A stretch of DNA of 64,000 nucleotides from Mustelus asterias (lineage: Eukaryota). The first letter of the stretch is position 1, and every line of letters starts with the position of its first letter. The stretch lies in the NCBI RefSeq assembly GCF_964213995.1, contig NC_135804.1, positions 58,776,001 through 58,840,000 on the forward strand, given 5' to 3'. The notes below the pieces were generated by a model that was not told where the DNA came from, made no database searches, and saw only the letters and a list, made by a program, of their open reading frames with translations. Of this stretch, positions 1,626 through 61,900 are shown in pieces. Position numbers and translations under genes: made by a program.

Positions 1626-3944
1626 CATTTGCTACCAAATAAACCTGTTCTACTTTAACCTGGTGTTAAAACTCTTGTTGTGTTTACCCCAGTCCAACGC
1701 TGGCATCTCCACATCATCATGACTGCCTTCAAGTCTGACTCCAGGAGTTGCTGGTCAAGGAATGTTGCTAAATAAGTTGAGTAACTTGTGAATCCTTAAT
1801 GTACACCAACGGTAGACAGTAAGAGCAGGAGAAATTTCCATCACATGGTCAGCCATGTGATGGAAATTTATTGAAGCCTCTACCATCACTATCCGTAGTC
1901 TTGGGGTACAACATAATGTAATGGTGTGTTACTAGAGCAACTGACTCCTTGGAGGGTAAAATTGCTGGTGTCTATCAGACTGGTACCAATAGTCTGGGGG
2001 TTAATCCAACTGGAGTGGATTGGGACCTGCCTCCTGGCTGTGAGATCCGAGTGCTGTAGGTTAGACCTGCCTTCAGGCAGAGTAGAGGAATCGAATACCC
2101 TGGGTCTACAGCTATAAAAAGCTCAATCTTGGAATGTTTTTAGATTCTCGACTTCTCTCTCTTTGTCATGTTTACTTCTGCATACTCTACATGTTTGTCT
2201 TGCTGTTTAGATTTTGATGTTTTCTTGAAGTCAGCGAGCTGCAGAGTGGCGTAAGTCAGCTTGTTATCTCCGCTTTGTTTAGTCTGTGAAAGCAATATTT
2301 AATACCTGTTAACTTGTCAGCTCATTACTTGAGGCAATCAGATTTTTAAAAAGGCTGTAATGAAGTTTTCTCTAATTTCAAGTCACAGTTAATAAGAACA
2401 CCACAGTCCATCAAGTTTTAAAGAGCTCTCTTTGGAGCAATTTAGTCCCCTTTTATGCTGACGAAAAGTGGCCATCCAATTTCCTTTTGAAATTATGGGT
2501 CTCTGCTTCCCTCTATCCCTGGCAGCCCACAAACCGATCTGCAACCTGTTTTTAACCCCTACCCCCTCCCCCAACATCCCTTGCCCAAAAACCTCATTCT
2601 TATACCATCAGCTAATGGGAACACCACAATGAATCTCTGCTCCAAGGAGAGCAACACCAGCTTTTTCGTGCCGAGAACCATTGTTACATTTCCTCTTTAG
2701 GGCCCACACATACTAATGTGCGCTGACCTGAGCAGGCTGCAAAATCTGTGGCCTAACCAAAACTTTATAAAGCTTGAATATTAGAACCATGGAATCCATC
2801 AAGTGTGCATTGACTATCCAGGCCCACTAACCCTGTGCCTTTAGTATATCTAACCTACACAATCTACTTTTCATGTTTTACTCACCATTCCCTTACTATG
2901 TCCTGCACTACCACCTTCAAAGATTGATGCACGTAGACTCCCAGTTCCCTCTGTTCTGCACACTCTTTAGAACTGCGCCAGTACATCGATGATGTTTATC
3001 CTTATCCCTTCTGCCAAAGTCCAGCACCTTGTGTTTTTAGATTGCATTTTGCCACTTATCTGCCTATTCTGCAAGTTTATGTCCTGATGCAGCCCATTAC
3101 AACTCCTCCTTTGTTAGCTCCTCCAAGTTTGGTGTCATTGACAATTGTTTGTATTGGTTTTATTTTGAGTCTCTCTCCTCTTCAAAGTCCTCCCCCAAAT
3201 TGTGTTGGTATTCTGTTTCAATCTTCGAGTTCCCCTGCTATTATAACCAATTTAAGACAGCAGATACATACTTCAATTAAAATAACAGACAAATGAATTT
3301 CATACTTGCAGACTGGTGGTTACTTGTATGCTGGGATGATGTGGCTACATATGGGGTCACTTGGCAGGAGTGCAGGTAGACACACAGCATGCTGCTCAGA
3401 GTATTCCATAAACTGTTATTATTGTAATACTTGGTCGCCAGTTATTGGAACCCAGCAAAGAATATTTGACAAGCTAGTGTTACAATTGTGGCTTAAGACT
3501 GAATTTTGCATGAGCCCAGCTAATCTATCTGATCTACTTACCCCTGGGGAAAGGCTCCAAGGTCCTGTTTACCCACTGGCTTCCTCTCCCCTCTTTCCCC
3601 CCCAAATCTCTGGGCCATGAGGCAAATATGAATGTGGCTGAGATCAGTCAACAGAATCAGTTGGTTGATTAAAATGTGGGGCCTTCCCAATTGCTGCAGC
3701 TCAGTGTAGTACCATTTAACACTGAGGGTGTTTCAATTAATGATCTGAGCTGTACCTGGAAATATACAATACTCTTCTCTATCTGTATGGGTTTGCATTT
3801 TTCCTGGTGCTGGTTTCGACAGGGGCGTTGTTAGTTGAGTTTCTTACTTTGTGGTTTAGAACAGAGTCCAGTGTCCTTTTTATATTGCCTCTGATTGCTT
3901 TTTCCAACTAAATCAGTTGGAGAGATGCTGGTGCTTTAGGACTC

Positions 3945-3950
3945 TTTATT
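3945..3950 (-). promoter_or_regulatory. Candidate poly(A) signal of the receptor gene
   Basis: AATAAA on the minus strand about 97 nt after the TGA at 4049-4047; conserved in copy B (58726-58721). Confidence 0.45.
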
Positions 3951-4046
3951 CTGTCCAATAAAGTCAAAACCACACTGTGCAGTTTCAGTAATGATTGTGA
4001 TAACAGTGTTGATCTTGAATGAAAATAGTTTGGGTATTAATTGACC

Positions 4047-4175
4047 TCAGTCCCTTCGTCCTACCTGGGAATAGATGGTGTGCTCTTTCTCATATCTCCG
4101 TTTGGAGGGTCCATTGTCATGTTTCAAGTTTAGACCGGCATAGGCAACAATTTCATTATTTGGTCCTTGTTGAAC
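4047..4175 (-). CDS. Receptor exon 6: cytoplasmic signalling exon with ITIM (VAYAGL) and ITSM (TIYSQV)
   Basis: Acceptor TTTTTTTTTGCAG|GTT, phase 0. Translation VQQGPNNEIVAYAGLNLKHDNGPSKRRYEKEHTIYSQVGRRD*. Confidence 0.88.
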   Translation of the reverse strand, partial: VQQGPNNEIVAYAGLNLKHDNGPSKRRYEKEHTIYSQVGRRD

Positions 4176-10100: not shown

Positions 10101-13100
10101 TTCCAGTCGCAACATCAACTGGGATTGTAACAGAAGGATGCAAGGCTTGGGAGCAGTTGTCGAGGAGATTTACTAGAACCGTACTGGAGGGAGGGACTTA
10201 CGTTGGGGAGACTAGAGAACCTATTATTGTTCTCCTCAGAGCAGAGAAAGAGAAAGTGTGTTCAAAATTGGGAGAGATTTTGACGAGTAAATAAGGAGTG
10301 TTTTCAATGATGGTTGGTTCAATGTCCAAGAGACAGAAACTTCGGATCATCAAAATCATCAGAGGTAGATGAGCGTTGTAGTCTGGAATGCACTTCCTGA
10401 AAAAGGCGGGGGGGGGGGGGGGGGCGGGGGGCAGACGCAGATTCCCTTGAATAAACAAAAATGAAGGATCATATGTAATGAGTGGGGAGTTGGACTAATT
10501 GAATAATTATCTCAACTAACTGGCACAAAGAGAATAGCCTCCTCTTGGGGCTGCCCCTTATTTCTTTCGATGCACTTCAGTTCTATGCTCCTAATCTTCA
10601 CCCATGCAGAGGCGGGTGGGCAGGGGGAAGGAGGAGGACCGCCTCTTGGGCCTGGCCAAGTTGGCCGTTAAGAGGTCCAGGCAGCCGGCAGTCGAGTTGG
10701 TCGTCTGCCCCTTCACTGCGGCTACGTTCACAGCAAGCTGGATTTGGAGAGGGAGCAGGCTGTGTCTACTGACACATTTCAGGTCGATGGGCGCCACAGG
10801 GGCTGGGGATGCATGATCATGCCCCGGTACTGACATTTATGGTTCAGTTAGTTAAGGTCTTTTGCCATTTGTTTTAGTTACAATGTCCCACCCGGCGCTA
10901 TCATCCTCTGTCCTTTTGATTAATATCAGACCTTTCGTTCTTTTGTAAGATTTAAAAATATGAATTAACTACTTATCGGATTGATTGCAATATTTATTTC
11001 TATTCCTCCCTAATCCCTCTTTTTGGAGTATAAAAACATTGTCTTCTTACCGCCTCCTCACTCTGACCGGCTTCCACAGAATTTCTTTTAACACCTGGAG
11101 AAAAGAAGAACTTGAGCTTGAGTAACTTTCTGAGTGTCAGCAAAACCAACACCATGCTTTCCATTCTGAACACTTTTACTGTCTAAAGGAAGGAGCCTTG
11201 AAAATTGAAATGTTCCATAGTGATGCTACCCCCCAATGGAGCGCACTGCCTTTAGTGTGATAGTGATAAACATGTGAAAAGAGAGTCGGCAAGCTGTTTT
11301 ATGTCGCTAAATTACAATTGAAATACGACCAGAGGGAGACGTAAAACAGTCTGCCAGTTCCATATCAGCCGTTTTACATTGTCGCAGGAAATAAGAGTGT
11401 TTACACTACAAGGTCCTGATATTTTTAAAAATGCGGAACGTTAAGGAGGTGTACAAATTGAATAAACAGTTCGAATGGGAAGATTGAACATCTGCATTTC
11501 AAAATTGATTTGCGTTGCCATATTCAACTCTCAATCACATAACACTCTTGTGGCATCAAATTCATTCTTTAAAGATGCAGCAAGGTGCTCTTTATTCCCT
11601 ATAATGAAGCAATATTCACCCGCCGTTTAAGTCTTAACAATTTAACTGCACATAACAAAATAAAAGTTTGCGGTGAAATAAGAAAGCTTCTTACCAGCTG
11701 AAGCTTTTAATTTGAGTCTCGTCAAAATAATTATCAACAGTACAACAGCCAATGCGCCGCCTGCACATCCGAAAATGAGCGTAAATTCGATTCCTGAAAC
11801 AGCTACAAGATCAACAAATGATTGAAATAAGAAACTATAGAACACAGCGAGAATTATACACAGTCTTGGGTCTAGCAAGGGAGGGCGCGGTGCAAAGTTG
11901 TCTTTCCTGTAATTGTGTCCATTTACTCTGTGTGGGGACCGACACTTTTATTTCTATAGGCAGTAGCTATAGAAGGATTATAACGTGACCCAAACGACAG
12001 TAACGCGATTTATGGAGGAAACTAATCGAGAAAGGCGCAGGAAGTTTCTCTCTCGACGTGAGGGCTTTTCGGTCAGAGTAAAGGGACTTACATTTGTGCC
12101 ACGCCAGACAGACGCGCACCGGCTACAAAGAGACGCAAAGTTTTTCATTCTTCAGCACTGACAACCAGAGAACACCTACTGTAGCTCTTTGTAGGTATAA
12201 GAACAGCTTGCATTTGTAGGTATAAGAACGGCTTGGGTCATTGTATATGTGGAGTTTGCACATTCTCCTCGTGTCTGCGTGGGTTTCCTCCAGGTGCTCC
12301 TGTTTCCTCCCACTGTCCAAAGATGTGCGGGTTAGGTTGATTGGCCATGCTAAAATTGCCCCTTAGTGTCCTGAGATGCGTAGGTTAGAGGGATTAGCGG
12401 GTAAATATGTAGGGATAAGGGGGTAGGGCCGGGGATTGTGGTCGGTGCAGACTCGATGGGCCAAATGGCCTCTTTCTCCACTGTAGGGCTTCTATGATTC
12501 TAAAGTTAAAGCACTGAAGGAGGCCACTCGGCTCATCTTGTCCATGCCAGCTGTATGGTGCCCTTTCAAATCTCACCTTCCTGCGTCCGGCCCATCGCCC
12601 TGTGGCTTACTTAAGGTGCAGATCCAGGTACTTTAAAAAAAAGAGTTTAGAGTCTCTGCCTCCACCAACTCAGTAAGAAGTCTCACAACACCAGGTTAAA
12701 GTCCAACAGGTTTATTTGGTAGCAAATACCATAAGCTTTCGGAGCACAGCTCCTTCTGAGCCGTTTGTGTAAAAAAAGGCATTCCTCGTGTCTTCTCTCC
12801 ACCTTCTGCCACTTTTATTAAATCTATGACCCCTGGTTCTAGAATTCTCCGTCAAGGGAAACGATTTCATCCTGTCCATTCTATCTCTTCCCCTCATAAT
12901 TGTGTACACCTCTATCAAGTCACTTCTCAGACTTCTTTGTTCCAAGGAAAATAATCTCAACCTATCCAATCTCTCTTCATAGCTACACTTTTCTAGCCCT
13001 GGCGATCTCCCGTTTTAGGTCTTTTCAGGAAAATGTTCTCCCTCCTCCAGCTACAAACTATCTTGATCATTTTAATTCGTTCCCATTGATGTGACATTGA

Positions 13101-16100
13101 GATTAAATAAAGTCCACATTAACCCTGTAAATTCGAGTTTGAACAGCTGCCCAGCTACATTAATAATAAATAATACAAATCGGAGTCTTTACCCCTGCTC
13201 GTTTCTGTAAATGTTTCGAATCTTACCTTGCATGACGGTGTAGCTGACACTGGCGGGCACCTGAAGGGAGATATGAGATGCCAGACATGTATAAACGACT
13301 CCGTTCTGGAGAGGCTGCGCTTCTTCCAAAGAACTGGAGACCTCAAAAAGACCATCCACTGTCTCGTTTCTCACAGTTTCTATTCCGGCCAGAATTTCCA
13401 CACCATCTCTTTGCCAGGAGATTTTTAAATCCTCCGGGTAAAATGCAGCCGTTTTACACTCGAATCTTCGAGAAGTCGCTGAATTCTCTTCAATCGGAAC
13501 GATTTTCAGTGGTGTTGGAGGAACTTTTAACAGGGGGAAAAATCATTTTTGAATTGAAAAGAGTAAATTCTCAATTGCCGAACCTCGATACGCTCTTACA
13601 GTCATACTGTGATAATAGTTATGGTGCTGTCGCGTTTTTTTAAACTTCGGGCGTGCATTTATTTTATATAATGTTATACGACGCTCAGCAAAATTGCCGG
13701 ATGTTTTGCAAGCGGTACACAAAGAGGATCATTCTCCCAGGCATAGTAGCAACCAGGAAAGAAGAGGTCACTGCTCGGAATTAAAGCCATGATGTGGAGA
13801 TGCCGGCGTTGGACTGGGGTAAGCACAGTAAGAAGTCTCACAACAGCAGGTTAAAGTTCAACAGGTTTATTTGCCAAATAAACCTGTTGGACTTTAACCT
13901 GGCGTTGTGAGACTTCTTACGGAATTAAAGCAGCAGATCCTGGCGCGGGATTGTGTTTGGCAGCAGTGACCCCGATTCAGATTCCGGTCCGAATATATCA
14001 GAGAGGGAGCACCAACCAGTCGCATGAACATTGGGTTCTACTCGGGTTTTTCTGTAAGAATCATTGTGGTACTAAACTTTGTGTGTTGGTTTGAAAAATG
14101 ACCCACTTCAAATATTTAATGTTTCCAAACGTATTTTGTTTTACTGGTTAATGTTAAGATGCGTGAAATCAAGATACCTCCGATATCTAAATTGGCTCCA
14201 GACAAGACAGAGTTATATGTATAGATTAAAACCCGTGAGTTACCATTGATTACACAACATTTCAATGCCCGTGGTTGAGGTTTCAGATCGTGCAATTTTC
14301 ACCAAAGCATCTTTCTGGGGGCTGGATGCGAATGTTGGAGTATTTTGCAAGCCAGGATAATTTTTGATAATTATATATCGCTATGTAGATCACAACACCC
14401 AGGGATTAATTCCAGAGATAAAAACAGGCCCTATGTTGGGTAAACTCAGCGGTTTGACTGAGTTTTCATTTCAGATTTCCAGCATCCGCAGTATTTTGCT
14501 TTTATTTGACTAGTTAGTTTGCCCTTCTGCAATTTTATTCGATCTGCTGAACACATTTTGTCTGGAGAAGATTCCGCTTCGAGCAGCCCAAAGTTACAAT
14601 TTTCTGATGTGAACCGCTCTATCTATCTGTCCACTCTATCTCCAATCACCTTTTAACTGGAAGTGAAGTCTCGTTTCATCGATTTATTTGTTAGAATCAA
14701 TCTCCTTAATATTTTTTTATTTACAAGTCTACTTTTCCGACATTGTAGCTCCTTGACACAAATTAATAATTTACAAGTATTATTAACTTTCAAAATTATG
14801 TTAGTCTTTATTCCCAGCCAAACCTCAGAATTCCTCCATTCTTTCCCCATGGACCTGCTTTTGGTACAATACAAAATGCGACAGAATTCCCGCTGGGGAG
14901 AAAGAAGCGCACGGGGACTGTACACAGAAGTAATGAATTACACATTAACGTTTATAGAAATGTTCGGTGGTATCCATTCTCCACTTTACCAGTTGTGAGT
15001 GCATCATAGAAAGTCCAGTTGGCGTACCCCAAAGGTTCAAACCAGAGCATCGGGCACCTTAACTGTCCTGTAAAGTCCAGGACCCGGGGTCGAATCCAGC
15101 ATTGAGGGAAAGATCAAAACCCTCCTTCTCAGAGGATTGTAGGATTCCATTGTGGAAAGATTTTGGAATTTTAAACAAGTTACTAATGGACACAACTACA
15201 ACATATAAACTGTTATCCTAGGAACAGGGGCCCATTCAGCCCGACTCACTTTGCTCTGCCAACCTTGGTGATAGTGATTAACACTGCTGCCTCACAACGC
15301 TAGGGACCCGGGTTCAATTCCGGCCTCGGGTCGGTGTGGAGTTTGCACGTTCTCCCCTTGTCTGCGTGGATTTCCTCCCAATGCTCCGGTTTCCTCCCAC
15401 ACTCCAAAGATGTGCCGATTAGATGGATTGGCCATGCTAAATTGCCCCTTAACATTCAGTGGTTTAGCAGGGTAAATACGTAGGGTTAGGGGGATAGGGC
15501 CTGGGTGCGATTGTTGTCGGTGCAGGTTCGATGGGCCAAATGGCCTCCTTCTGTACGGTAGGTATTCTATGGTTCTGCCTGATCTCTAACTTAACTCCAT
15601 TCGTCCGACTTAATTCATACTTAGCAAAAATCTAGCCGTCGCAAATTTAAGGCAATGACGTAAAGAAAGTGTTACATCAGCAATTTTGGGCAGTGGGCGG
15701 AAAAGGGATCTGATTTTGGAAATACTCGTTGCTATACTCGGGGAATTTTCACCTGAGTTTATCATGAAGGCACTTAGAGTGAGGGTTCAGAAAAGATTTG
15801 TTGGAGATTTACCAGGGTCAAGGCACTTAGATTATGTGCAGAGACTGAAGAAACTACAGTTGTTCTCTTTAGACCTGATAGTTTTAAGAGGAGGCTGGAT
15901 AGCGATTTTGAAAGTTCTGACAAATTTGATAAAGTCAGTAAGCAGAAAGTGTTCTCAGTGACACAAGAGTCGGCAACCAGAAGGTGTTTGGCAAAAGAAC
16001 GCAAGGATTCTGATCTTTGAGTGGAACGTAATTACAGTCTCGTCCCTGTTAGTGTTACCATGTTGTTCAGCTTAAATCGCGAGCAGTGAGTGTAGGGATC

Positions 16101-17310
16101 CCGATTGATTTTCGCTTCCTGGTTAAATCAACTAACTCGGCATTTCGAAACGGCCCTGCAACAAACAGAAATGCCTTGAATAACCGGTCTTACTTTCCTC
16201 GAAATCTTCTTTTTGCAATCACCTTTGCGGGGGAATATTCCTTCCTTTTTGATTTAAGTTAAATGATCTTTGAAGTTTTGTAAAAGATTTGACCTGGGAG
16301 GTGTTAAGATTGCTGACATTGTTCAATTGTGGCACCATTGTAGCGAGAAGGAACCAGACCCTAACATCCCATTACAACATCAATGCAAAATACTGCAGAG
16401 GCTGGAAATTTGAAATACAAACCGAAAATACCGAGGATGTTCAGAGGTCGGGCAACATCTGTGTAGAGAAAGTGAGTTAACGTTTCGGATCATTTCATCA
16501 TCGACATGAAAGGTTAACTTTGTTTCCCTCCACAGAGAGAACTGACCTGTTGAGGTTTTTCCAAATTTTTCTCTTTATATTTCGTATATTTCCATTGCTT
16601 AATTTCAAAATGAAAATATCCACTGTGCATCGAGGGAGGTCAATGGAGGACAATCCAGTGTTCTGTAAAAATAATTCGCTATAACCAGCTTTTCCTCCAG
16701 TGATAAAAAAATCAAATTGCATATGTGGCGCTGAGCTGAAATCCTCCCGTTTACAATAACACCTACCGTACACAGTGAGCTGGGTGCCAGTTCCAGTTTC
16801 ATTCGATTTTTCTGGATATTTTACTTTACAATAATACACTCCGGAATCTGCAAAAGTCACATTCAGGAATTCAAGCGAACTGCTTTCCTTGTTCACATCA
16901 AATCGCTTTCTGCTGTCTGGTTGAAGAAAGGATTGCTCTCCGCGTCTCCACCAACGAACATCGGGCGCATCTTGAAATGTGGGAAATGTGCAGAACATGA
17001 TGGCATTCGCGCCTCTGCTCACCTTCAAGTATTTAGGGACCTGAAGCACTTTGTTCCAAGTTACTCCGGAGGCTGTCAGGAAAGAAACAAAGGCGGTGAT
17101 GTAACAGATAAAGAAAAATAACTGAGAGAAGTAAATTATAAAAACAAGCAATCGAATTAGAGAAGCACAGTATCCAATTGTACAGTGGGTAACAGCTGAA
17201 GAGTCATTTAAATTAGGATTTGCTATTGTGAAATATTGTGAATAACTAAATGTACCTGGCCAAAACACGCCCAGAAGAGCCATGTAGTGAACTGTAACTT
17301 GTATCGACAT
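4047..17310 (-). CDS. SIRP-like inhibitory IgSF receptor (leader-V(J)-C1-TM-ITIM/ITSM), 6 coding exons, 312 aa: join(17310-17256,17072-16767,13523-13227,11802-11695,11094-11051,4175-4047)
   Basis: All junctions are GT-AG with phases 1,1,1,1,0. The joined 939 nt ORF has no internal stop and one domain per exon, the typical IgSF layout. An extra small exon hidden in the 6.9 kb last intron cannot be excluded. Confidence 0.88.
4795..5230 (-). mobile_element. CR1 LINE 3' fragment
   Basis: Reverse complement of the CR1 ORF2 C-terminus (FFTQRVVSLWNSLP) and 3'UTR. Confidence 0.8.
5232..6560 (+). mobile_element. CR1/L2-group LINE RT 3' fragment, interrupted by a minus-strand CR1 at ~5960-6372
   Basis: ANKWQVIFMPHKCQAMTISNKR and MEYSPFAWINAAPKTLKKLDTIQ. 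The nested CR1 encodes LFSLERRRMRGDLIEVYKIMKG and has an AAAGAAC-type tail. Confidence 0.8.
6575..7760 (-). mobile_element. CR1/L2-group LINE RT fragment (same family, opposite strand)
   Basis: ORF 6948..7589: QGSVLDP..FINNLP..MFADDCTMF (RT core). Confidence 0.85.
8242..8565 (-). mobile_element. HE1-type SINE
   Basis: Reverse complement of the SINE consensus seen elsewhere in the window; duplicate at ~63018-63341. Confidence 0.85.
8678..10132. mobile_element. Solo LTR inserted in a CR1 fragment
   Basis: Termini TGTTA...TAACA with a near-perfect 4-bp TSD (GGAG/GAAG). The CR1 reading resumes after 10132. Carries a nested Penelope hairpin. Confidence 0.7.
9517..9740. mobile_element. Miniature Penelope-tail inverted repeat with two hammerhead motifs
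   Basis: Arms CTCACAACACCAGGTTAAAGTCCAACAGGTTT / AAACCTGTTGGACTTTAACCTGGTGTTGTGAG. TSD-like CGAGAGTG on both sides. CUGAUGA (-) and CUGACGA (+) cores at the centre. Confidence 0.85.
10545..10870 (+). mobile_element. Tx1/L1-clade LINE ORF2 C-terminal fragment
   Basis: GC-rich island encoding DRLLGLAKLAVKRSRQ, resembling the LLLGLAKLAIYRSRQ end of Tx1-type ORF2. Confidence 0.6.
11051..11094 (-). CDS. Receptor exon 5: short cytoplasmic exon (GVKRNSVEAGQSEEA)
   Basis: Strong acceptor TTCTTCTTTTCTCCAG| and donor GCG|GTAAGA. At 44 nt it converts phase 1 to phase 0, exactly as exon 6 requires. Confidence 0.85.
11695..11802 (-). CDS. Receptor exon 4: transmembrane exon
   Basis: AVSGIEFTLIFGCAGGALAVVLLIIILTRLKLKASA: hydrophobic span with no charged residue, then a basic stop-transfer. 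Donor CTG|GTAAGA. A second in-frame acceptor would start the exon at 11793. Confidence 0.9.
12228..12501 (+). mobile_element. HE1-type SINE (5'-truncated)
   Basis: V-SINE core and tail. Confidence 0.85.
12505..13000 (-). mobile_element. CR1 3' fragment with nested Penelope tail (~12671-12757)
   Basis: ORF 12712..12969 LFSLEQRSLRSDLIEVY. Nested CAGTAAGAAGTCTCACAACACCAGGTTAAAG with half a hammerhead motif. Confidence 0.75.
13227..13523 (-). CDS. Receptor exon 3: Ig C1-set domain
   Basis: VPPTPLKIVP...FECKTAAFYPEDLKISWQRDG...DGLFEVSSSL...YTCLASHISL...VMQ. Has the FYP turn and the [FY]xCx[VA]xH C1 signature. 297 nt, phase 1-1, donor CAAG|GTAAGA. Confidence 0.93.
13789..13920. mobile_element. 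Minimal Penelope-tail hairpin insertion
   Basis: About 48-bp near-perfect inverted repeat centred on TTTGCCAAA, flanked by the direct repeat GGAATTAAAGC (TSD). Confidence 0.85.
15266..15575 (+). mobile_element. HE1-type SINE
   Basis: tRNA-like head with B-box GGTTCAATTCC; V-SINE core. Confidence 0.85.
16385..16600. mobile_element. Old palindromic repeat, probably a second Penelope-tail family
   Basis: AAATACTGCAGAGGCTGGAAAT...GAGTTAACGTTTC followed by its degenerate reverse complement. Related pieces at ~14440-14505, 18065-18200, 29900-29980 and 34110-34165. Confidence 0.5.
16767..17072 (-). CDS. Receptor exon 2: Ig V-set domain with germline-joined J-like G strand
   Basis: B-strand Cys (IMFC), C-strand Trp (VRWW), DSGVYYC, and GTGTQLTV. 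Acceptor TTTCTTTCCTGACAG|, donor TACG|GTAGGT. 306 nt, phase 1-1. Confidence 0.95.
17256..17310 (-). CDS. Receptor exon 1: signal peptide (MSIQVTVHYMALLGVFWP)
   Basis: ATG plus 55 nt ending CCAG|GTACAT, phase 1; short hydrophobic leader 183 nt upstream of the V exon. Confidence 0.8.
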
Positions 17311-21962: not shown

Positions 21963-22900
21963 AGACCATAAAGGCCATAGGATATAGGAGCAGAATTAGG
22001 CCATTCAGTCCATCAAGTCTGCTCTGCCATTTGATCATGGCTGATATGTTTCTCAACCCCATTCTCCCGCCTTTTCCCCCAACCTTTGATCCCATTAGCA
22101 ATCAAGAACTTATCTATCTCTGTCTTAAATAAACTCAATGAGCTGGCCTCCACAGCTTTCTGTGGCAATTGATTCCACAGATTCGCCATGCTCTGACTGA
22201 AGAAATTCCTCCTCATCTTGGTTCTAAAGGGTTGTCCCTTTATTCTGAGGCTGTGCCTTCGGATCCTATTCTTTCCGACTAATGGAAACATCTTCTTCAC
22301 GTCCATCCTATCCAGGCCTTTCAGTATTCTATAAGTTTCAATGAGATCCCCCTTCATCCTTCCAAACTTCATTGAGTACAGACCCAGAGTCCACAAATGC
22401 TCCTCATACATCAAGCGTTTCATTCCCGGGATCATCCTCATGAACCTCTTCTGGTCCGTCTCCAAGGTCAACACATCCTTCCTTAGATACAGGGCCCAAA
22501 ATTGCTCACGATATTCCAAATGTGGCCTGACCAGAGCCTTATAAAGCCTCAGCAGTGCATCCCTGCTTTTGTATTCCAGTCCTCTTGAAATGAATACTAA
22601 AATTGCATTTGCCTTCTTAATTATCAACTCAACCTGCAAGTTAACCTTATGAGAATCCTGAACTAGGATTCCCAAGTCCCTTTGCGCTTCTGATTCCTGA
22701 ATGCTTTCCCCATTTAGAAAATAGTCTATGCCTCTATTCTTTCTACCAAAGTGCATAACCTCACACTTTCCCACATTGTATTCCGTTTGCCATTTCTTTG
22801 TCTACTCTCCGAACCTGTCCAGGTCTTTCTGCAGCCTCTCTGTCTCCTCAATACTACCTGTACCTCCACCTACATTTGTATCATCTGCAAACTTTGCCGC
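21963..22900 (-). mobile_element. CR1 LINE ORF2 3' fragment
   Basis: ORF 22013..22774: [35 protein letters not shown]. Confidence 0.92.
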
Positions 22901-30670: not shown

Positions 30671-31187
30671 ATGAGGTTTTGGGGCGTTTGTTGTGCACAC
30701 GTTTCCTTATCACGGCAGTGGCCACACTTCAGAAGTTGTCTGCAAACGGCGATGGCAAATTCGGTTAAAAAAATTACGAATCATTCCCAGTCATCGAGAT
30801 CGTTGGTACTTTACTCGTTAATAACTGAAGAAAAATATCTAGCAGCTCTTTCTAGCGAAATCTTACATACCTTAACAAAACACTTATTTTCCCCAACAAC
30901 AGGGAGCATCCTCCAAATATCTTCGCAACACTGCTAACCCAGAATGACCAGAGGAGGTCGCTGTTTCCCGCAAATTGTTGCTGGGCTGGAGTAATAATTG
31001 TCGGAATTATGCACCAGCTATAGCTCCGGAATATCTCATTACTCTCAATGTGTAAATTGTGGTCCAAATGTTCACCTTCAAAGAACATTCATTTAAATCT
31101 CCTATCTGTTAATGTGAATTTGCACGCCTATTGTAAAGGTTTGAATTGCAAAGCGATGTGCGCGCAGATGATAAACGTGTGTCTTGC

Positions 31188-33030
31188 CTTTGGCACTGTC
31201 ACAGCTTGAAATACTGCCCAAGGATGACTATCAGCACCATTATTACCAATGGACTCACTCAATACCGAGCGCCACTAGAGGACAACGACATTGGGAGCGC
31301 CTGCAAACCAAGAACAGCAGAGATATAAGGCCGTTAATATCATTACATCCAACGAGAATACCAGGAATACACTGGATCAGAACTCATCAGTGTAGTGACC
31401 ATTTAATACAAATACAGATCTTTAAAAAATCAAATTACTGCCAACTGAAACAGTTCACATTCGGACTAATACTTCGTCAATGTAATAAAAGAATACAACA
31501 ACTTCAAATGCTAACATGGTTCTCAAAAAAAGTCACTGGATTATGAAACAGGACAAACGAACAAGAGTTTCCGAAAAAGAAGTGAACATTTGTAATTTAC
31601 AAATTCGGGTCTGAACAGAAAGAGGAGCCGCTTCTGCGGGTTAATGCCGTATCTTTTTAAGGTGCATACATTCCGACCGTCCTTCACTACTTAGCAGTAT
31701 TGACCCCCAGGTCCAATTTTCATGCTGTTCTTATACTCGAGTCACATGTAGATCTCCAGGGTAAAACTGGGCTGTTTTTCCAGGAAAGTCACTGAGGAGG
31801 ATGGACAGAATTTACACTCGATCGAGTTGATCCTCGGATGAATGGGGCGAATTTGGGAGGGAAGGAAAATGATTTTGTTTTTAAAATATTGATTACTATT
31901 TTATTTCAGTAGCCTATAATTTAGCACACATGTTTAGGACAGGGCATTTAACATCGTGCTTCATTGGAGCTTTTTAAATTTCTTCGTTTTCAAACATTAT
32001 TTATCATGGAATTAGAAATTATATGGACCCTTGAATAGAGGAAGAGAAGTGACAGACATAAATATGTATAGTAGAATCACTGGGCCGTAGAGCATAGAGA
32101 GAGGTAATTCGGCCCAAATTGTCTATGTTGGCTCTTTGAAAGAATTATATAATTGGTCTCACCATTGGTCTTTCTCCAAAGCTCTGGATTTCTAAATTTT
32201 TAAGTATGTGTCCTATTCCCAATAATAAAATTATTATTGCTTCTTCCAGGTAGGGAATTCCGGATCGTAGCATTTTAGCTCGGAAAACATTTTTTCTTCC
32301 CCTCCGATCTTGCTCTTTTGACCATTTTCATGAATTTGGTCCTTTGGTTACTGAATCGTAGTTTATCCTGTTACAGAATCTGATAACCATACACTGTAGG
32401 AATCCATTTGCTCAGTGTGCTTGGTTGGTTCTGCAAATGCCATCCAGTTTGTCTAATTGACCTATTTATTCATTTACCTTTAAAAAATATGGATAATCCT
32501 GCTACAATAACAAGTTGTAAACTTAAATAGATGTATTGTAAATCTTACTCCGAGGCTGGCTGGATGCTGATACTAGATGCAAACCCCTATGCAGTTGTTT
32601 CATTCCTGCACTCTTCACTAACTCGTTGATATTTTACCAAGTATCTTTTGTATAGTTGATCCCTGAAACATCCAGAACTTGCAACTCAAGGGGCACGAGG
32701 ATCTTTGAGCCGGTTCCATTCCCAATTCTCCTTTACGACAGTATACTGACCTTATGGCCAGATTCTTTGAAAATCACAGTGAAGAAATAGAGGGCTTCTC
32801 CACACTTTTTGTTTGGAAGATTTGTCTTTCGCTTCTTCGTTGTCCAAGAGTTTTTCGTTATCCTACTGCCACCAATAGGTCTTTCGTTGACTCCTCTTGA
32901 AAGTGAAGGAAGATGCAGTACCCGGCGATGTTTGTTCGTTTGAGCGCAACTTTAAGTGGAGAGGATTTGGCTAATTGTGAAATCCCCCAACAACCATCAG
33001 AAAGCCAATATAAATACGAAAATAGACATC
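31188..33030 (-). pseudogene. Decayed paralogue of the V(J)-C1-TM receptor
   Basis: Three remnants in the correct order and strand. V at ~33030-32690 (YCIFLHFQE / TYWW / TVIFKESG / GNGTGSKILV). C1 at ~31850-31600 (KTAQFYPGDLHVT, versus KTAAFYPEDLKIS in the intact gene). TM at 31300-31188 (VSPLVIMVLIVILGQYFKL). All contain stops or frameshifts. Confidence 0.8.
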
Positions 33031-33149
33031 TGTGGCAGTGCAATCCCCAGGATCAGAATACATCTGAAGCATTCCGGACAATTCAAGTTGACTGAATGCA
33101 AGCAACAAATGACATCCGATAGTTCGGATTTTGTGGGTTCAGCAAAGAT

Positions 33150-52080: not shown

Positions 52081-52531
52081 ATTGATTGGCACTTAATGCT
52101 CCAAAAGGAATATCCAAGTCTGATCTCAAACCATGGAATTTCAATTTTAAGAACTATCATAAACTGACATTACAAAATCTGTATGACTTGGTTGATATTG
52201 TTTCAAACTTGAGCAAATTTATAACATGCTACCCAAAGTAATAAAATATTTGCAAAGCCTTCTTGGTATGAAAAGGAACTGATATTAGACTTGTTCCATT
52301 GGATAAGTGACCAATTCTCCTGTTTTACCACCTTGGCTTTGTGGATTCTCACCATTGTTCTGTACTTTAATTGCGATGAATGAAACTCTACGGTTAATGA
52401 ACAAATATCAGGAGGCCTTGTGGCACAGTGGGTACCTGCTTCTGAGGCAGAAGCTCTGGGTTCAAGTCTGACACAGTAAGAGTTTTAACAACACCAGTTT
52501 AAAGTCCAGCAGGTTTATTTGGTAGCAAATG

Positions 52532-52568
52532 CCATTAGCTTTCGGAGCGCTGTTCCTTCGTCAGATGG
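52532..52568 (-). ncRNA. Minimal hammerhead ribozyme, core intact
   Basis: CCAT-CTGACGA-A-GGAAC-AGC-GCTCC-GAAA-GC-TA-ATGG, with one stem II mismatch. Confidence 0.72.
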
Positions 52569-55500
52569 AGTGGATATCTGCTCTCAAACAGGGCATACAG
52601 AGACATAAAATCAAGTTACAGAATACTGATTAGAATGCAAATCTCTACAGCCAGCCAGGTCTTAAAGATGCAGACAATGTGAGTGAAGGGAACATTAAAC
52701 ACAGGTTAAAGAGATGTGTATTGTCTCCAGACAGGACAGCCAGTCAGATTCTGCAAGTCCAGGAGGCAAGCTGTGGGGGTTACTGATAGTGTGACATAAA
52801 CCCAGCATCCCAATTTAGGCTGTCCTCATATGTGCGGAACCTGGCTATCAGTTTCTGCTCAGCGACTCTGCACTGTCGTGTGTCGTGGAGAACGCTTACC
52901 CGAAGATCTGAATGCCCGTGACCGCTGAAGTGCTCCCCCACAGGAAGAGAACAGTCTTGCCTGGTGATTGTTGAGCGTTGTTCATTTATCTGTTGTTGTA
53001 GTGTCTGCATGGTATCCTCAATGTACCATGCCTCGGGACATCCTTTCCTGCAGCGTATCAGGTAGACAACGTTGGCTGAGTTGCAAGAGTAGGTATCGTG
53101 TACCTGGTAGATGGTGTTCTCACATGAGATAATGGCATCTGTGTCGATGATCCAGCACGTCTTGCAGAGGTTGCTGTGGCAGGGTTGTGTGGTATTGTGG
53201 TCACTGTTCTCCTGAAGGCTGGGTAGTTTGCTGTGGACATTGGTCTGAGGTTGTGCGGTTGTTTGAAGGCAAGAAGTGCGGGTGTGGGGATGGCCTTGGT
53301 GAGATGTTCGTCTTCATCAATGACATGTTGAAGGCTCCGGAGGAGATGCTGTAGCTTCTCCGCTCTGGGGAAGTACTGGACGATGAAGGGTACTGTGTCC
53401 TGTGTTTGTCTTCTGAGGAGGTTGGTGTGGTTTTTTGCTGTGGCGTGTCGGAACTGTCGATCGATGAGTCAAGCGCTATATCCTGTTATGAGGGCATCTT
53501 TCAGCGTCTGGAGGTGTCTGTTGCGATCCTCCTCATCCGAGCAGATCCTGTGTAAAAGGAAGGCTTGTCTGTAGGGGATGGCTTCTTTAACGTGTTTAGG
53601 GTGGAAGCTGGAGAAGTGGAGCACCGTGAGGTTATCCATGGGCTTGCGGTACAGTGAGGTGCTGAGGTGACTATGCTTAATGGAGATGCGTGTATCCAAG
53701 AATGCAACTGATTCCGGAGAGTAGTCCATGGTGAGTCTGATGGTGGGATGGAACTTGTTGATGTCGTCGTTGTTTCAGTGATTGTTCACCATGAGTCCAA
53801 AGGAAGAAAATGTCATCGGTGTATCTAGTGTATAGCATCGGTTGAAGGTCCTGTGCGGTGAAGAAGTCTTGTTCGAACCTGTGGATGGAGGTGTTGGCAT
53901 ATTGAGGTGCGAATTTGGTCCCCATGGCTGTTCCATGTGTCTGGGTGAAGAACTGGTTGTTGAAGGTGAAGACATTGTGGTCCAGGATGAAGCGGATGAG
54001 TTGTAAAATTACATCTGGAAACTGGCAGTTGTCGGCGTTGAGTACTGAGGCCGTTGCAGCAATGCCATCATCATGGGGGATGCGGGTGTAGAGTGCCGAG
54101 ACATCCATTGTGATGAGTGCTCCTGGTTCAACTGCTCCATGTGTGCTGATCAAGACCTTTTTGATCCAGACCTTCAGAGCACCCTCCGTGCTCTTATCCC
54201 ACATACTCCCCGCATTGGAGATCTCTACTGCCTCCCGAAGATACACAAGGCAAACACACCCGGCTGTCCCATCATATCGGGCAACGGGGCCCTGTGCAAG
54301 AACCCCTCCAGCTACATCGAGGGCATCCTGAAACCAATTGTACAAAGAACCCCCAGCTTTTGTCGCAAAACTACGGACTTCCTACAGAAACCCAGCGCAC
54401 ATGGAGCAGTTGAACCAGGAGCACTCCTCATCACAATGGATGTCTCGGCACTCTACACCAGCATCCCCCACGATGATGGCATTGCTGTAACGGCCTCAGT
54501 ACTCAACGCCGACATCTGCCAGTTTCCAGATGTAGTTTTACAACTCATCCTGGACCACAATGTCTTCACCTTCAACAACCAGTTCTTCATCCAGACCCAT
54601 GGAACAGCCATGGGGACCAAATTCACACCTCAATATGCCAACATCTTCATCCACAGTTTCGAACAAGACTTCTTCACCGCACAGGACCTTCAACCGATGC
54701 TATACACTAGATACATCGATGACATTTTCTTCCTTTTTGGACTCTCAGTTGTTTCAGTGATTGTTCACCATATGATGACATCAACAAGTTCCATCCCACC
54801 ATCAGACTCACCATGGACTACTCTCCGGAATCATTTGCATTCTTGGACACACTCGTCTCCATTAAGGATGGTCACCTCAGCACCTCACTGTACCCCAAAC
54901 CCACGGATAACCTCACGATGCTCCACTTTCCAGCTTCCACCCTAAACATGTTAAAGAAGCCACCCACTACGGACAAGCCCTCCGTATACACAGGATCTGC
55001 TCAGATGAGGAGGATTGCAACAGACACCTCCCAGACGCTGAAAGATGCCCTCATAAAAGGGCGGCACGGTAGCACAGTGGTTAGAACTGCTGCTTCACAG
55101 TTCCTGGGACATGTGTTTGATTCCCGGCTTGGGTCACTGTCTGTGTGGAGTTTGCACATTCTCCTTGTGTCTGTGTGGGATTCCTCCAGGTGCTCCGGTT
55201 TCCTCCCAAAGTCCAAAGATGTGCGGGTTAGGTTGATTGGCCATGCTAAAATTGCCCCTTAGTGTGTCCTGGGATGCGTGGATCAGTGGGTAAAATATGT
55301 AGGGATATGGGGGTGGGGTCGAGGTGGGATTGTGGTTGGTAAAGACTCGATGGGCCAAATGGCCTCTTTCTGTACTGTAGGGTTTCTATGACTAAGAACA
55401 GGATATGGCGCTCGACTCATCGATCGACAGTTCCGACGCGCCACAGTGTAAAACCGCACCGACCTCCTCAGAAGACAAACACAGGACACGGTGGACAGAG

Positions 55501-56325
55501 TACCCTTTGTCGTCCAGTACTTCCCCGGAGCGGAGAAGCTACGGCATCTCCTCCGGAGCCTTGATGTCATTGCTGAAGACTAACATCTCGCCAAGGCCAC
55601 ACCCCCACTTCTTGCCTTCAACCAACCGCACAACCTCAAACAGACCATTGTCCGCAGCAAACTACCCAGCCTTCAGGAGAACAGTGACCATGACACCACA
55701 CAACCCTGCCACAGCAACCTCTGCAAGACGTGCCAGATCATTGACACGGATGCCGTCATCTCACGTGAGAACACCATCTACCAGGTACACGGTACCTACT
55801 CTTGCAACTCGACCAACGTTGTCTACCTGATACACTGAAGGAAAGGATGTACATTGGGGAAACCATGCAGACAGTACGACAACGGATAAATGAACATCGC
55901 TCGACAATCAGCAGGCAAGACTGTTCTCTTCCTGTGGGGGAGCACTTCAGCGGTCACGGGCATTCAGCCTCTGATCTTCGGGTAAGCGTTCTCCAAGGCG
56001 GCCTTCACGACACACGACAGCGCAGAGTCGCTGAGCAGAAACTGATAGCCAAGTTCCGCACACATGAGGACGGCCTAAACTGGGATGTTGGGTTTATGTC
56101 ACACTATCAGTAACCCCCACAGCTTGCCTCCTGGACTTGCAGAATCTGACTGGCTGTCCTGTCTGGAGACAATACACATCTCTTTAACCTGTGTTTAATG
56201 CTCCCTCCACTCACATTGTCTGTATCTTTAAGACCTGGTTGGCTGTAGAGATTCACATTCTAATCAGTATTCTGTAACTTGATTTTGTGTCTCTGTATAC
56301 CCTGTTTGAGAGCAGATATCCACTG

Positions 56326-56362
56326 CATCTAACGAAGGAGCAGCGCTCCGAAAGCTAATGGC
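56326..56362 (+). ncRNA. Degenerate hammerhead ribozyme (core CUAACGA)
   Basis: Paralogous position to 1589-1625; shares the G-to-A core change. Confidence 0.6.
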
Positions 56363-58711
56363 ATTTGCTACCAAATAAACCTGTTCGACTTTAACCTGGT
56401 GTTAAAACTCTTACTGTGTTTACCCCAGTCCAACGCTGGCATCTCCACATCATGACTGCCTTCAAGTCTGACTCCAGGAGTTGCTGGTCAAGGAATGTTG
56501 CTAAATAAGTTGAGTAACTTGTGAATCCTTAACGTACACCAACGGTAGACAGTAAGAACAGGAGAAATTTCCATTACATGGTCAGCCATGTGATGGAAAT
56601 TAATTGAAGCCTCTACCATCACTATCCATAGTCTTGGGGTACAACATAATGTAATGGTGTGTTACTAGAGCAACTGACTCCTTGGAGGGTTAAATTGCTG
56701 GTGTCTATCAGACTGGTACCAATAGTCTGGGGGTTAATCCAACTGGAGTGGATTGGGACCTGCCTCCTGGCTGTGAGATCTGAGTGCTGTAGGTTAGACC
56801 TGCCTTCAGGCAGGGTAGAGGAATCGAATACCCTGGGTCTACAACTATAAAAAGCTCAATTTTGTGTTGTTTTTAGATTCTCGACTTCTCTCTCTTTGTC
56901 ATGTTTACTTCTGCATACTCTACATGTTTGTCTTGCTGTTTAGATTTTGATGTTTTCTTGAAGTCAGCGAGCTGCAGAGTGGCGTAAGTCAGCTTGTTAT
57001 CTCCGCTTTGTTTAGTCTGTGAAAGCAATTTTTAATACCTGTTAACTCGTCAGCTCATTACTTGAGGCAATCAGATTTTTAAAAAGGCTGTAATGAAGTT
57101 TTCTCTAATTTCAAGTCACAGTTAATAAGAACACACAGCCCATCAAGTTTAACCAGCTCTCTGTGGAGCAATTTAGTCCCCTTTTATGCTGACAAAAAGT
57201 GGCCATCCAATTTCCTTTTGAAATTATTGGTCTCTGCTTCCCTCTATCCCTGGCAGCCCACAAACCTATCTCCAACCTGTTTTTAACCCCCACCCCCTCC
57301 CCCCAACATCCCTTGCTCAAAAGCTTCATTCTTGTACTATCAGCTAATGGGAACACCACAATGAATCTCTGCTCCAGGGAGAGCAACACGAGCTTTTTCA
57401 TGCCTAGAACCATTGTTACATTTCCTCTTTTAGTGCCCACACATACTAATGTGTGCTGACCTGAGCAGGCTGCAAAACCTGTGGCCTAACCAAAACTTTA
57501 TAAAGCTTGAATATTAGGACCATGGAATCCATCAAGTGTGCACTGACTATCCAGGCCCACTACCCCCTCTATCCTATAACCCTGTGCCTTTAGTATACCT
57601 AACGTACACAATCTACTTGTCATGTTTTACTCACCACTCCCTTACTATGTCCTGCACTACCACCTTCAAAGATTGATGCACGTAGACTCCCAGTTCCCTC
57701 TGTTCTGCACACTCTTTAGAACTGCGCCAGTACATCGATGATGTTTATCCTTATCCCTTCTGCCAAAGTCCAGCACCTTGTGTTTTTAGATTGCATTTTG
57801 CCACTTATCTGTCTATTCTTTTGTCCTGATGCAGCCCATTAAAACTCATCCTTTGTTAGCTCCTCCAAGTTTGGTATCATTGACAATTGTTTGTATTGGT
57901 TTTATTTTGAGTCTCTCTCCTCTTCAAAGTCCTCCCCCAAATTGTGTTGGTATTCTGTTTCAATCTTCGAGTTCCCCTGCTATTATAACCAATTTAAGAC
58001 AGCAGATGCATACTTCAATTGAAATAACAGACAAATGAATTTCATACTTGCAGACTGGTGGTTACTTGTATGCTGGGATGACGTGGCTACATATGGGGTC
58101 ACGTGGCAGGAGTGCAGGTAGACACACAGCATGCTGCTCAGAGTATTCCATAAACTGTTATTGTTCTAATACTTGGTCGCCAGTTATTGGAACCCAGCAA
58201 AGAATATTTGAAAAGCTGGTGTTACAATTGGTGCTTATGACTGAATTTTGCATGAGCCCAGCTAATCTATCTGATCTACTTACCCCTGGGGAAAGGCTCC
58301 AAGGTCCTGTTTACCCACTGGCTTCCTCTCCCCTCTTTCCCCCCAAATCTCTGGGCCATGAGGCAAATATGAATGCTGGCTGAGATCAGTCAACACCATC
58401 AGTTGGTTGATTAAAATGTGGGGCCTTCACAATTGCTGCAGCTCAGTGTAGTACCATTTAACACTGAGGGTGTTTCAATGAATGATCTGAGCTATACCTG
58501 GAAATATACAATACTCTTCTCTATCTGTATGGGTTTGCATTTTTCCTGGTGTTGGTTTCGACAGGGGCGTTGTTAGTTGAGTTTCTTATTTTGTGGTTTA
58601 GAACAATCATTACTGTAGCCAGCCCCAAAAAGGGAACAGAGTCCAGTGCCCTTTTTATATTGCCTCTGATTTGCTTTTTCCAACTAAATCAGTTGGAGAG
58701 ATGCTGGTGCT

Positions 58712-58951
58712 TTAGGACTCTTTATTCTGTCCAATAAAGTCAAAACCACACTGTGCAGTTTCAGTAATGATTGTGATAACAGTGTTGATCTTGAATGAAA
58801 ATAGCTTGGGTATTAATTGACCCCAGTCCCTTCGTCCTACCTGGGAATAGATGGTGTGCTCTTTCTCATGTCTCCGTTTGGAGGATCCATTGTCATGTTT
58901 CAAGTTTAGACTGGCATAGGCAACAGTTTCATTATTTGGTCCTTGTTGAAC
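58712..58951 (-). CDS. Terminal ITIM/ITSM exon of a second receptor copy (remaining exons predicted beyond 64000); stop-loss adds 37 aa
   Basis: VQQGPNNETVAYASLNLKHDNGSSKRRHEKEHTIYSQVGRRDWGQLIPK...QNKES*. Acceptor intact; TGA->TGG relative to copy A. Confidence 0.85.
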   Translation of the reverse strand, partial: VQQGPNNETVAYASLNLKHDNGSSKRRHEKEHTIYSQVGRRDWGQLIPKLFSFKINTVITIITETAQCGFDFIGQNKES

Positions 58952-61900
58952 CTGCAAAAAAAATGGAATATTGGTTGAGAGTCATCTATCAACATTTGGA
59001 ACTGAGTCTGAGAATGTAAATATGTAGACGGTAACTGATAACATTCGGGTACCATTACACACTATCCACTGATGTAATCTAATATTTCACAAATTATTTA
59101 CCCGTATTTACAATTGAGATGATCTTGAGCATCACTAATAACTATCCTATGAACAATGCAAACAAATCATTCCCTCCCCCTTTCTCAATTATCTCCTTTT
59201 ACTTAATTTGACCTTTTACTTCGACACATTCCATCCCTCAGTAGAAATCTCCAATTCCACTGCCTAACCCAGAGGTGTAGTGTGCAGAACAATTCAGGTA
59301 CCTGCAGCCAATCTGAATGAGCTAAGACACCAGAGGCAGGGATAGAAGCACGTAACAATGTAAGGATTAGGAGTAAAACTAGGCCACATGACCCATTGGC
59401 ATGCTCCACCATTCAATAGGTTAATGGCTGATTTGGTTGAGGTCTCACCTCCACTTTCCTGTTTATCCTCTAAGAAGAAATTCCTCATCTTTGTCTTTGA
59501 ATACTGTGGTAGGGTGGCATTTGTTGTCTCACTCCATTTAAATAGTTTAAATGATATTCTACGTTGAGTAGTACATAGAAGATAGGAGGAGGCCATTTGG
59601 CCCTTGGAGCCTGCTACCCCATTCATCATGATCATGGCTGATCATCCAACTCAATAGCCTAATCCTACTTTCTCCTCCTAACCTTTGATCCCATTCACCC
59701 CAAGTGCTTTATCTAGCTGCCTCTTGAATACATTCAATGTTTTGGAACCAACTGATTCCTGTGGTAATGAATTCCACAGGCTCACCACTCTTTGGGTGAA
59801 GAAATGTCTCCTCATCTCTCCTAAATGGTCTACCCTGAATCCTCAGACTGTGACCCCTGGTTCTGGACTCCCCCCACCATCGGGAACATCCTCCCTGCGT
59901 CTATCCTGTCAAGTCCTGCTAGAATTTTATAAGTCTGAGATTCCCCCCTCATTCATCTGAACTCCAGTGAAAACAATCCTAACCTAGTTAATGTCTCCTC
60001 ATACATCAGTCCCTATGTGGCACAAATGAAGATGGAGATTAATCATCTCAGCCCTAGTACACCATTGCAGGACTTTCTCAGGGTAGTGCCCGAGACCCAA
60101 TCGCCTTCAGCTGCTTCATCAATGACATTCATTCAATCAAATATGGGTTTGACTGCACAATGTTCAGCACCATTCGCAACTCCTAACATACTGAAGCAGT
60201 CCATGCACAAGTGCAGCAAGACCCAGACAGCATCCAGGTTTTGGCAAACAAGTGGCAAGTAATATTCATGCCACACAAGTGCCAGGCAATGACCATCTCC
60301 AACAAGAGATGATCCATTGCCCCTTGACACTTGATGACATTACCGTCACTGAATCCCACACTATCAATATTCATTGACCAGAAACTGAACTGGACTAGCC
60401 ATAAAAATACTGTCACTACTAGAGCAAAGTGAAAGTTAAGAATCCTGTGGCGAGTAACTCACTTCCTGACTCCCCAAATCCTGTCCACCATCTACAAGGC
60501 AAAAGTCAGGAGTGTAATGGAATACTGTCCATTTGCCTGGATAAATGCAGCTCCAAAAACACTGAAGAAGCCGGACACCATTCAGGACAAAGCAGCCCAA
60601 TTGATTGATACCCTTTCTCAAACTATCTACAAGATGCATTGCAGGCGCTGAGGTTCCGAAGGCAGAACCTTCCAAACACACGGCCACTACCGTCCAGAAG
60701 GATAAGGTCAGCTGATACCTGCAAACACCACCACCTGTACAAAGAACAAACAAAGAACAGTACAGCACAGGAAACAGGCCCTTGGGCCCTCCGAGCCTGT
60801 GCCACTCATTGGTCCAACTAGATCATTCGTTTGTATCCCTCCATTCCCAGACTGCTCATGTGACTATCCAGGTAAGGCTTAAACAATGCCAGCGTGTCTG
60901 CCTCCACCACCCTACTTGGTAGCGCATTCCAGGCCCCCACCACTCTCTGTGTAAAAAACGTCCCTCTGATATCTGAGTTATACCTCGCCCCTTGAGCCCG
61001 TGACCCCTCGTGATCGTCACCTCCGACCTGGGAAAAAGCTTCCCACTGTTCACCCTATCTATACCCTTCATAATTTTGTACACCTCTATTAGGTCTCCCC
61101 TCATTCTCCGTAGTTCCAGGGAGAACAAGCCCAGTTTACCCAATCTTGTAAGTTCCCCTCCAAGTCACTTACCATCCTGACTTTGAAATTCATGCTACTC
61201 CTTCACTATCCTTGGGTCGAAATCCTGTGATTCCTTTGATAACAACACTGTGGGTGCACCTCAGGAACTGCAGCAGTTCAAGAAGGCAGCTTATCACCAC
61301 CTTCTCAAGGACAAATAGGGATGGTCAGCAAATGGTAGTTTTTAAAAATTCATTGGTGGGATATGGGTGTCGCTGGCTGGCCAGCATTTATTGCCCATCC
61401 CTAGTTGCCCTTGAGAAGGCAGTGGTGAGCCACGTTCTTAAATCACTGCAGTCCATGTGCTGTGGGTTGACCCACAATGCCATTGAGGGAATTCCAGGGT
61501 TTTGACCAAACAACTGTGAAGGAACAGCAGCAATATATTTCCAAGTCAGGACGGTAAGTGCCTTGGAGGGGAACTTGTGGTGGTGCTCCCATGTATCTGC
61601 TGCCTTTGTCCTTCTCGATGGAAGTGGTCGTGGGTTTGGAAGGTGCTGTCCAAGAATCATTGGTGAATTGCTGCAGTGCATCTTGTAGATAGTACACACT
61701 GCTGCTATTGAGCGTCAGTGGTGCAGTGAGTGGATGTTGTCAAGCTTCTTGAATGTTGTTGGAGCTGTACCCATCCAGACAAGTGGGAAGTATTCCATCA
61801 CACTCCTGACTTGTGCCTTGTAGATGGTGAATAGTTTTTGGGAAGTCAGGAGGTGAGTTACTTGCCACAGTATTCCTAGCCTTTGACCTGCTCTTGTAGC

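Follow-up and report, generated by a model that had tools for sequence, protein, structure and literature searches.

A decayed V-C1 receptor gene with a transmembrane arginine within a large VJ-C1 gene family of the shark Mustelus asterias

Results

The window, by which we mean the whole stretch of 64,000 nucleotides of Mustelus asterias DNA that was analysed, lies on the chromosome designated C4 and carries an intact receptor gene, A', at 17310-2140 on the minus strand. This gene consists of seven exons with canonical splice sites. The first-pass annotation of this DNA had put the intact protein at 312 amino acids, a figure that our gene models revise to 354. The domains of the A' family were assigned by Pfam, and the tail of A' carries the motifs VAYAGL, TIYSQT, LTYATL and VEYAEV. 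The exons of A' and the start of the next tandem unit are as follows.

17256..17310, minus strand: leader exon of A'
16767..17072, minus strand: V exon of A' with a joined J-like GxG motif
13227..13523, minus strand: C1-set exon of A'
11695..11802, minus strand: transmembrane (TM) exon of A', uncharged, with a phase-1 donor
11051..11094, minus strand: first cytoplasmic exon of A'
4065..4175, minus strand: tyrosine exon of A' (VAYAGL, TIYSQ)
2140..2283, minus strand: last exon of A' (LTYATL, VEYAEV, stop)
54737..64000, no strand assigned: beginning of the next tandem unit, 95-97% identical to 1-9211; it contains the tail exons of the A' copy that follows

A decayed middle tyrosine exon of A', which lacks its acceptor, lies at 3828-3734 on the minus strand; it is intact in the ITIM gene A of the same chromosome (at 58.9505 Mb), and the next copy of A' differs there by a 29-nt indel. 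The introns and spacers of the window are full of transposon fragments (5349-7604, 22013-22801, 37737-38573, 52471-56419 and others), presumably LINE-like and Penelope-like reverse transcriptase elements and SINE-like repeats.

Remnants of a leader, a V exon, a C1 exon and a TM exon lie in gene order on the minus strand in the 31188-33072 region. They are best described against gene B at C4:58.99 Mb, 180 kb away, in which the leader, V, C1 and TM exons are open.

33032..33072, minus strand: leader remnant of the pseudogene, with the ATG at 33072 and a +1 insertion (by alignment to gene B)
32690..32993, minus strand: VJ-type V exon with about 11 small indels; acceptor AG changed to GG, donor GT to TT
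31587..31851, minus strand: C1 exon with frameshifts and 9- and 20-nt deletions; acceptor AG changed to AA, donor deleted
31188..31300, minus strand: TM exon of 113 nt (115 in B), with the acceptor intact, in-frame stops, and the phase-2 donor GT changed to GC
31265..31267, minus strand: arginine codon CGG of the TM exon, paired with CGA in B and in frame with the hydrophobic core
30908..31094, minus strand: intron that follows the TM exon, with 71% identity to gene B

A V-C1-TM pseudogene had been proposed here from a few peptide remnants, and every one of these falls on the minus strand in the order given (32917-32894, 32877-32869, 32777-32757, 32723-32694, 31778-31740 and 31301-31260). The span then assigned, 31188..33030, contains them all and leaves out the leader remnant at 33072-33032. 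The YYC segment of the V domain had been reported as missing; its codons are indeed damaged, by a deletion of about 5 nt plus substitutions, and the SVYC that follows persists in another frame. Compared with gene B, the leader has lost its donor together with about 125 nt of intron 1. Five of the six internal splice sites are non-canonical or lost, the TM acceptor being the only canonical one. The exon-intron order is kept, the lesions are disabling and the parent lineage is intact, which marks the remnant as a duplicated (unprocessed) pseudogene.

A DNA search of the genome found two further copies of the pseudogene, at C4:58.864 and 58.922 Mb, that are 98-99% identical to it. The three tandem copies differ from one another at 19-25 of about 2050 positions and have the TM lesions in common; the gene therefore died before the 55-58 kb unit was triplicated. 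The TM exon showed zero differences from contigs built from two DNA runs, which represent two samples within a single study (one of them possibly the assembly's own sample). Mismatches are flat across the three codon positions (V, 0.26/0.24/0.38; C1, 0.28/0.24/0.23), a pattern that is not proof of neutral decay because the V exons of the intact genes A' and A are flat as well.

To place the pseudogene, we compared it with intact genes at the DNA level. Its V exon region is 68% identical to that of B over 458 nt (E 1e-29), the C1 region 70% over 319 nt and the leader 76% over 150 nt; the flanking introns align too, and identity ranges from 68 to 76% throughout. Local alignment scores against B were 457, 384 and 163, compared with shuffle maxima of 120, 119 and 75. 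Gene B was the only gene matched by the pseudogene DNA, both in a search of the genome and within the 1.2 Mb of fetched family loci, and the horn-shark orthologue of B finds the pseudogene by tblastn (E 5e-10). The first-pass annotation had proposed the intact receptor A' as the query; its V and C1 domains gave no significant tblastn alignment to the pseudogene (the best piece, at 22.7 bits, barely exceeded the shuffle maximum of 22.3), and B is the appropriate query instead.

A tree of 84 V+C1 rows places the pseudogene as sister to B (100/94; branch 0.61 versus 0.15) and joins the two to the horn-shark protein P0001 (100/100). The pseudogene row was read through the frame of B, with X at the breaks, which favours B; the unguided DNA searches are therefore the independent support for this placement. 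We conclude that the pseudogene is the sister of gene B. This bears out the earlier description of an older, divergent family member.

The charge of the TM segment had been left ambiguous, with one reading that contained an arginine and another, uncharged, that required two frameshifts (LVALGI). In the TM segment of B, an Arg precedes a hydrophobic stretch of 16 residues. The TM exon of the pseudogene is 2 nt shorter, and its best alignment to B needs one 2-nt deletion, located upstream. This single deletion explains the length of the exon. The uncharged reading is unnecessary, and no paralogue matches LVALGI. In the CGG register, the pseudogene reads A-R-Y-stop-V, followed by the hydrophobic run. 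Aligned to B, the exon scores 91, compared with 59 for the next best exon and 28-29 for ITIM-class neighbours. The Arg homologous to that of B is encoded by CGG at 31267-31265 and not by the CGC at 31271 called in the first-pass annotation, an overlapping codon offset by four bases. Taking CGC as the Arg codon, through a 4-nt duplication, would call for two indels and gives a lower score against B. The two registers are close (11 versus 9 of 21 nt against B) and both contain an Arg; across eight Arg exons, four favour the CGG register, three the CGC register, and one is a tie.

The phase-2 donor of the pseudogene TM exon is shared with seven Arg-TM exons that stop right after the TM segment, whereas the TM exons of ITIM genes have phase-1 donors. 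Tyrosine exons were sought with a DNA profile built from 18 such exons. None was detected by this profile in 25 kb below B or in 14 kb below the three pseudogene copies, in agreement with the earlier failure to find an ITIM exon, and no tyrosine-motif exon was found from the pseudogene TM exon down to the next gene. The same profile does recover the decayed tyrosine exon of A' (24.6 bits), although a divergent tail exon could escape it since the B lineage sits on a long branch. Both B and the ancestor of the pseudogene thus have an Arg near the outer end of the TM segment and a short tail without an ITIM. The pseudogene is a real, ordinary and non-coding member of the Arg-TM class.

Other features of the B lineage would fit a different history, in which B and its relatives are secreted or signalling-dead V-C1 decoys, the Arg-TM exon is a little-used relic and the pseudogene derives from such a decoy. 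Word-index and full HMMER searches found a single orthologue of B, in the horn shark (78% V identity), and both of its modelled isoforms end nine residues past C1 without a TM segment. No exon resembling this C-terminal stub was found below B. Moreover, an insertion that we take to be hAT-like sits at the TM donor of B and interrupts it; its ends are terminal inverted repeats, and its 8-bp target duplication matches at 7 of 8 positions:

L015:6490-7058 (C4:58.9865-58.9871 Mb): insertion of 569 nt at the TM donor of B

B may therefore be impaired, and no near-identical ITIM partner of B occurs among the 57 V matches described below. However, the TM exon of B is open and has a canonical acceptor, and read-through into the insertion, which meets a stop four codons in, would still give an Arg-TM protein with a short tail. 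Gene models often miss exons, and those of the horn shark may omit the TM exon. We consider a decoy origin unlikely.

The V domain of A' has at least 61 matches in the genome, at least 57 of which are on C4: 28 at 58.8-59.96 Mb, 28 at 67.7-70.0 Mb and one at 54.7 Mb. The family thus comprises about 57 non-rearranging VJ-C1 loci, off the MHC contig and away from the marker families of the SIRP locus. That the family had duplicated at least twice, as first suggested, is correct and understates its size. Both C4 clusters contain recent large duplicated blocks, such as the identical pairs 59.534/59.693 and 59.564/59.723, and the series at 68.1-68.7 Mb is repeated at 69.4-70.0 Mb. Arg-TM and ITIM forms were also found in catshark, white shark, bamboo sharks, sevengill, manta and chimaera. 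The V-C1 genes of cartilaginous fish in RefSeq belong to the same family (XP_067906043-48, XP_038662025, XP_041048274 and XP_007902825 are examples), where they are named [quoted passage not shown], "tapasin-related protein-like" or "NCR3 ligand 1-like". These names are automatic and inconsistent, none of them flags a pairing of Arg and ITIM forms, and the pseudogene has no protein record.

Among the 55 loci with a C1 exon, we scored the 36 with a clear TM segment and at least 10 kb scanned, and dropped 19. Tyrosine exons were absent from 18 of 20 Arg-TM loci and present at 14 of 16 non-Arg loci, so that the proposal of a paired inhibitory/activating family is upheld by the distribution of exons. 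The association has a Fisher p of 4e-6, which overstates its strength because the loci are related and not independent. The exceptions carry both features (59.657, where the tyrosine exon is frameshifted, and 69.430, plus 69.293 outside the scored set) or neither (59.059 and 59.383). At least five ectodomain clades of the tree contain both Arg-TM and ITIM types. Two zeta/FcR-gamma-type TM exons with an Asp are also present in the genome.

At C4:59.657 Mb (minus strand; L052-L053), a new TM Arg accompanies the frameshifted tyrosine exon, and the ITIM sisters of this copy lie at 59.500 and 59.833; the copy may be in the course of switching to the activating type. At C4:59.366, 59.467, 59.630 and 59.805 Mb (plus strand), a Gly-to-Arg change has occurred in a TM exon of the ITIM class and no tyrosine exon was found, while the sister locus at 59.209 retains the Gly and two tyrosine exons. 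Judged from their exons, these four loci represent a second route to a putative activating type.

The first-pass annotation had raised the possibility that the pseudogene was an activating partner for the receptor next to it. The ectodomain of the pseudogene lineage is too different for this: B and A' share 37 of 100 V residues and 38 of 97 C1 residues, and with V domains of B and A' only 37% identical, the pseudogene is not the pair of A'. Closely similar ectodomains, joined to an ITIM tail in one gene and to a charged TM segment without a tail in the other, were found instead between A' and four intact plus-strand genes at C4:59.564, 59.723, 59.898 and 59.954 Mb (L048, L056, L063 and L065). 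These genes are inverted relative to A' and lie 0.8-1.2 Mb from it; their V and C1 exons are 91-98% identical to those of A', against about 70-76% for the introns, and each has an Arg in the TM segment and a stop within a few codons. Between A' and the 59.954 gene, third-position mismatches number 5 of 102 in V and 4 of 99 in C1, whereas blocks of the V-C1 intron are 70-75% identical and similarity stops before the TM exon. Gene A and the locus at 59.874 show the same pattern of similar exons and diverged introns. The tree joins individual A' copies to individual inverted partners, 58.793 to 59.954 (100/96) and 58.848 to 59.898 (97/75). These patterns suggest that the V and C1 exons of A' and the inverted genes are likely kept alike by exon-limited gene conversion. 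We predict from the sequences that the functional pairing of A' is with these intact Arg-TM genes at 59.56, 59.72, 59.90 and 59.95 Mb, and this set of partners is the strongest result of the analysis.

The pseudogene and A' nevertheless travel together. Gene B lies upstream of the ITIM gene A (58.96 Mb), and the pseudogene and A' repeat this order on the same strand. The pairs are colinear, and their non-coding DNA shows comparable identity (about 68-77%). In the horn shark, the accessions of the relatives of A and B follow one another (XP_067906043-46 and XP_067906047-48), and the contigs that bear them are equal in length. Adjacency on one strand, inheritance as a cassette and this horn-shark arrangement would all suit a dedicated activating partner that recognises a common ligand with the neighbouring ITIM receptor. 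Against this stand the low identity between the lineages (37% in V, 39% in C1), the lack of a significant alignment of the pseudogene to A', and the 91-98% identical Arg-TM genes elsewhere; we regard such a partnership as very unlikely. We find it hardly credible that the pseudogene descends from an inhibitory or dual receptor and that its ITIM exons have been deleted or have decayed past detection. Three family loci do carry both an Arg and tyrosine exons, but no tyrosine exon was detected below B either, and the phase-2 donor is unsuited to phase-1 tail exons. Moreover, the V and C1 exons and the introns of the pseudogene can still be aligned at 70%, and a tail exon as old as these ought to be visible too.

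Discussion

We consider it probable (about 0.8) that the pseudogene is the duplicated remnant of a V-C1-TM gene with a TM Arg, and that this gene was likely of the activating type within a family of paired shark receptors. According to our model, an old cassette of A and B was duplicated, the copy of B died, and the unit of A' plus the dead B was later triplicated; death likely came soon after the two-gene cassette had been copied. When alive, the ancestor would have stood at the cell surface with a dimer of the FcR-gamma/CD3-zeta type, its Arg paired with the Asp of the adaptor, and may have signalled through the ITAM of that adaptor. Pairing of an Arg with the Asp of an ITAM adaptor is the basis of coupling in NKp30, NKp46, GPVI and LILRA. 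The tail of A' would recruit SHP-1/2. As a protein the pseudogene would now be inert, a passenger of the unit that amplifies A'.

On a broader reading, to which we give slightly better than even odds, the cartilaginous fish possess a complex of about 57 VJ-C1 genes that lies apart from both the MHC and the SIRP locus. Within it, inhibitory genes would swap ligand-binding exons one-to-one, by conversion, with mirror-image activating decoys. Activating forms would have arisen repeatedly, through an old Arg-TM exon and through Gly-to-Arg changes with loss of the tail, making the complex a shark counterpart of the KIR, LILR and SIRP complexes shaped by pathogens, with the pseudogene as one of its fossils. 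Alone, the pseudogene has little weight; it is a record of birth and death in a receptor cluster. Little is charted of the expanded paired receptors that serve NK or myeloid cells in cartilaginous fish, unsplit VJ-C1 genes are relevant to the origins of antigen receptors, and near-identical on/off pairs offer a direct handle on ligand and adaptor coupling.

The C4 family resembles the SIRP family in having a joined-VJ V domain with a C1-set domain, in clustering and in its predicted opposite signalling types, and A' in particular has four tail tyrosines. Among single-domain matches in the PDB, the V domain of SIRP-alpha is the best for that of A', although this match is weak (E 2e-6). SIRPs have two C1 domains, whereas each C4 locus has one in the fetched DNA and two occur in 2 of 59 V+C homologues. 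The TM segment of SIRP-beta carries a Lys; the C4 family instead has an Arg near the outer face. The human SIRP locus lies between NSFL1C and PDYN. No SIRP-locus markers were found on C4; SEP-domain matches fell on C7 and C20 and opioid-precursor matches on C5, C7 and C20, with paralogues undistinguished in both cases. In the accessible part of a survey of this family, SIRP-alpha is inhibitory, SIRP-beta activating and SIRP-delta soluble, SIRP clusters are known down to lizards, and their origin is called unknown (PMC9652883).

PRARP/VJC1 and UrIg, as far as the available portions of their descriptions go, likewise have an unsplit VJ exon followed by C1 and do not rearrange (PMC10751288, PMC12227049, PMC11599192). 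They are presented in those portions as linked to the MHC or to antigen receptors (PMC10751288, PMC12227049), whereas the C4 cluster lies off the MHC contig; the comparison is one of gene architecture.

Paired receptors with exon-limited conversion are an already established pattern. In the sections available of the Xenopus study, paired CEACAMs have opposite orientation, homogenised ligand-binding exons and diverged introns (PMC5112662). A' and the inverted genes resemble them in orientation and in the restriction of similarity to exons. They differ in that the ectodomain is unrelated, that the CEACAM activators described there have ITAM-like tails of their own, and that both the V and the C1 exons appear to be converted on C4. 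The accessible text of PMC6795676 holds nothing on the C4 VJ-C1 family. We found no description of the cluster in the literature searched, with supplements and some key papers outside its scope, and absence from print is thereby not established.

With NKp30/NCR3, to which the first-pass annotation had likened the TM Arg, the C4 family shares a single VJ exon and an Arg in the TM segment. The Arg of NKp30 lies near the outer TM end, and to this extent the analogy holds. It fails for the ectodomain, because the C4 family has a C1 exon and is not V-only, and for location, since the C4 family is off the MHC contig and all 140 MHC class I matches are on C8. These are exon matches, most of them at 21.6-24.7 Mb. 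V-only VJ exons, which we take to be NCR3/NKp30-like, occur on that contig at C8:7.147, 20.504 and 20.522 Mb (L097, L098 and L100), two of them about 1 Mb from the very large class I array.
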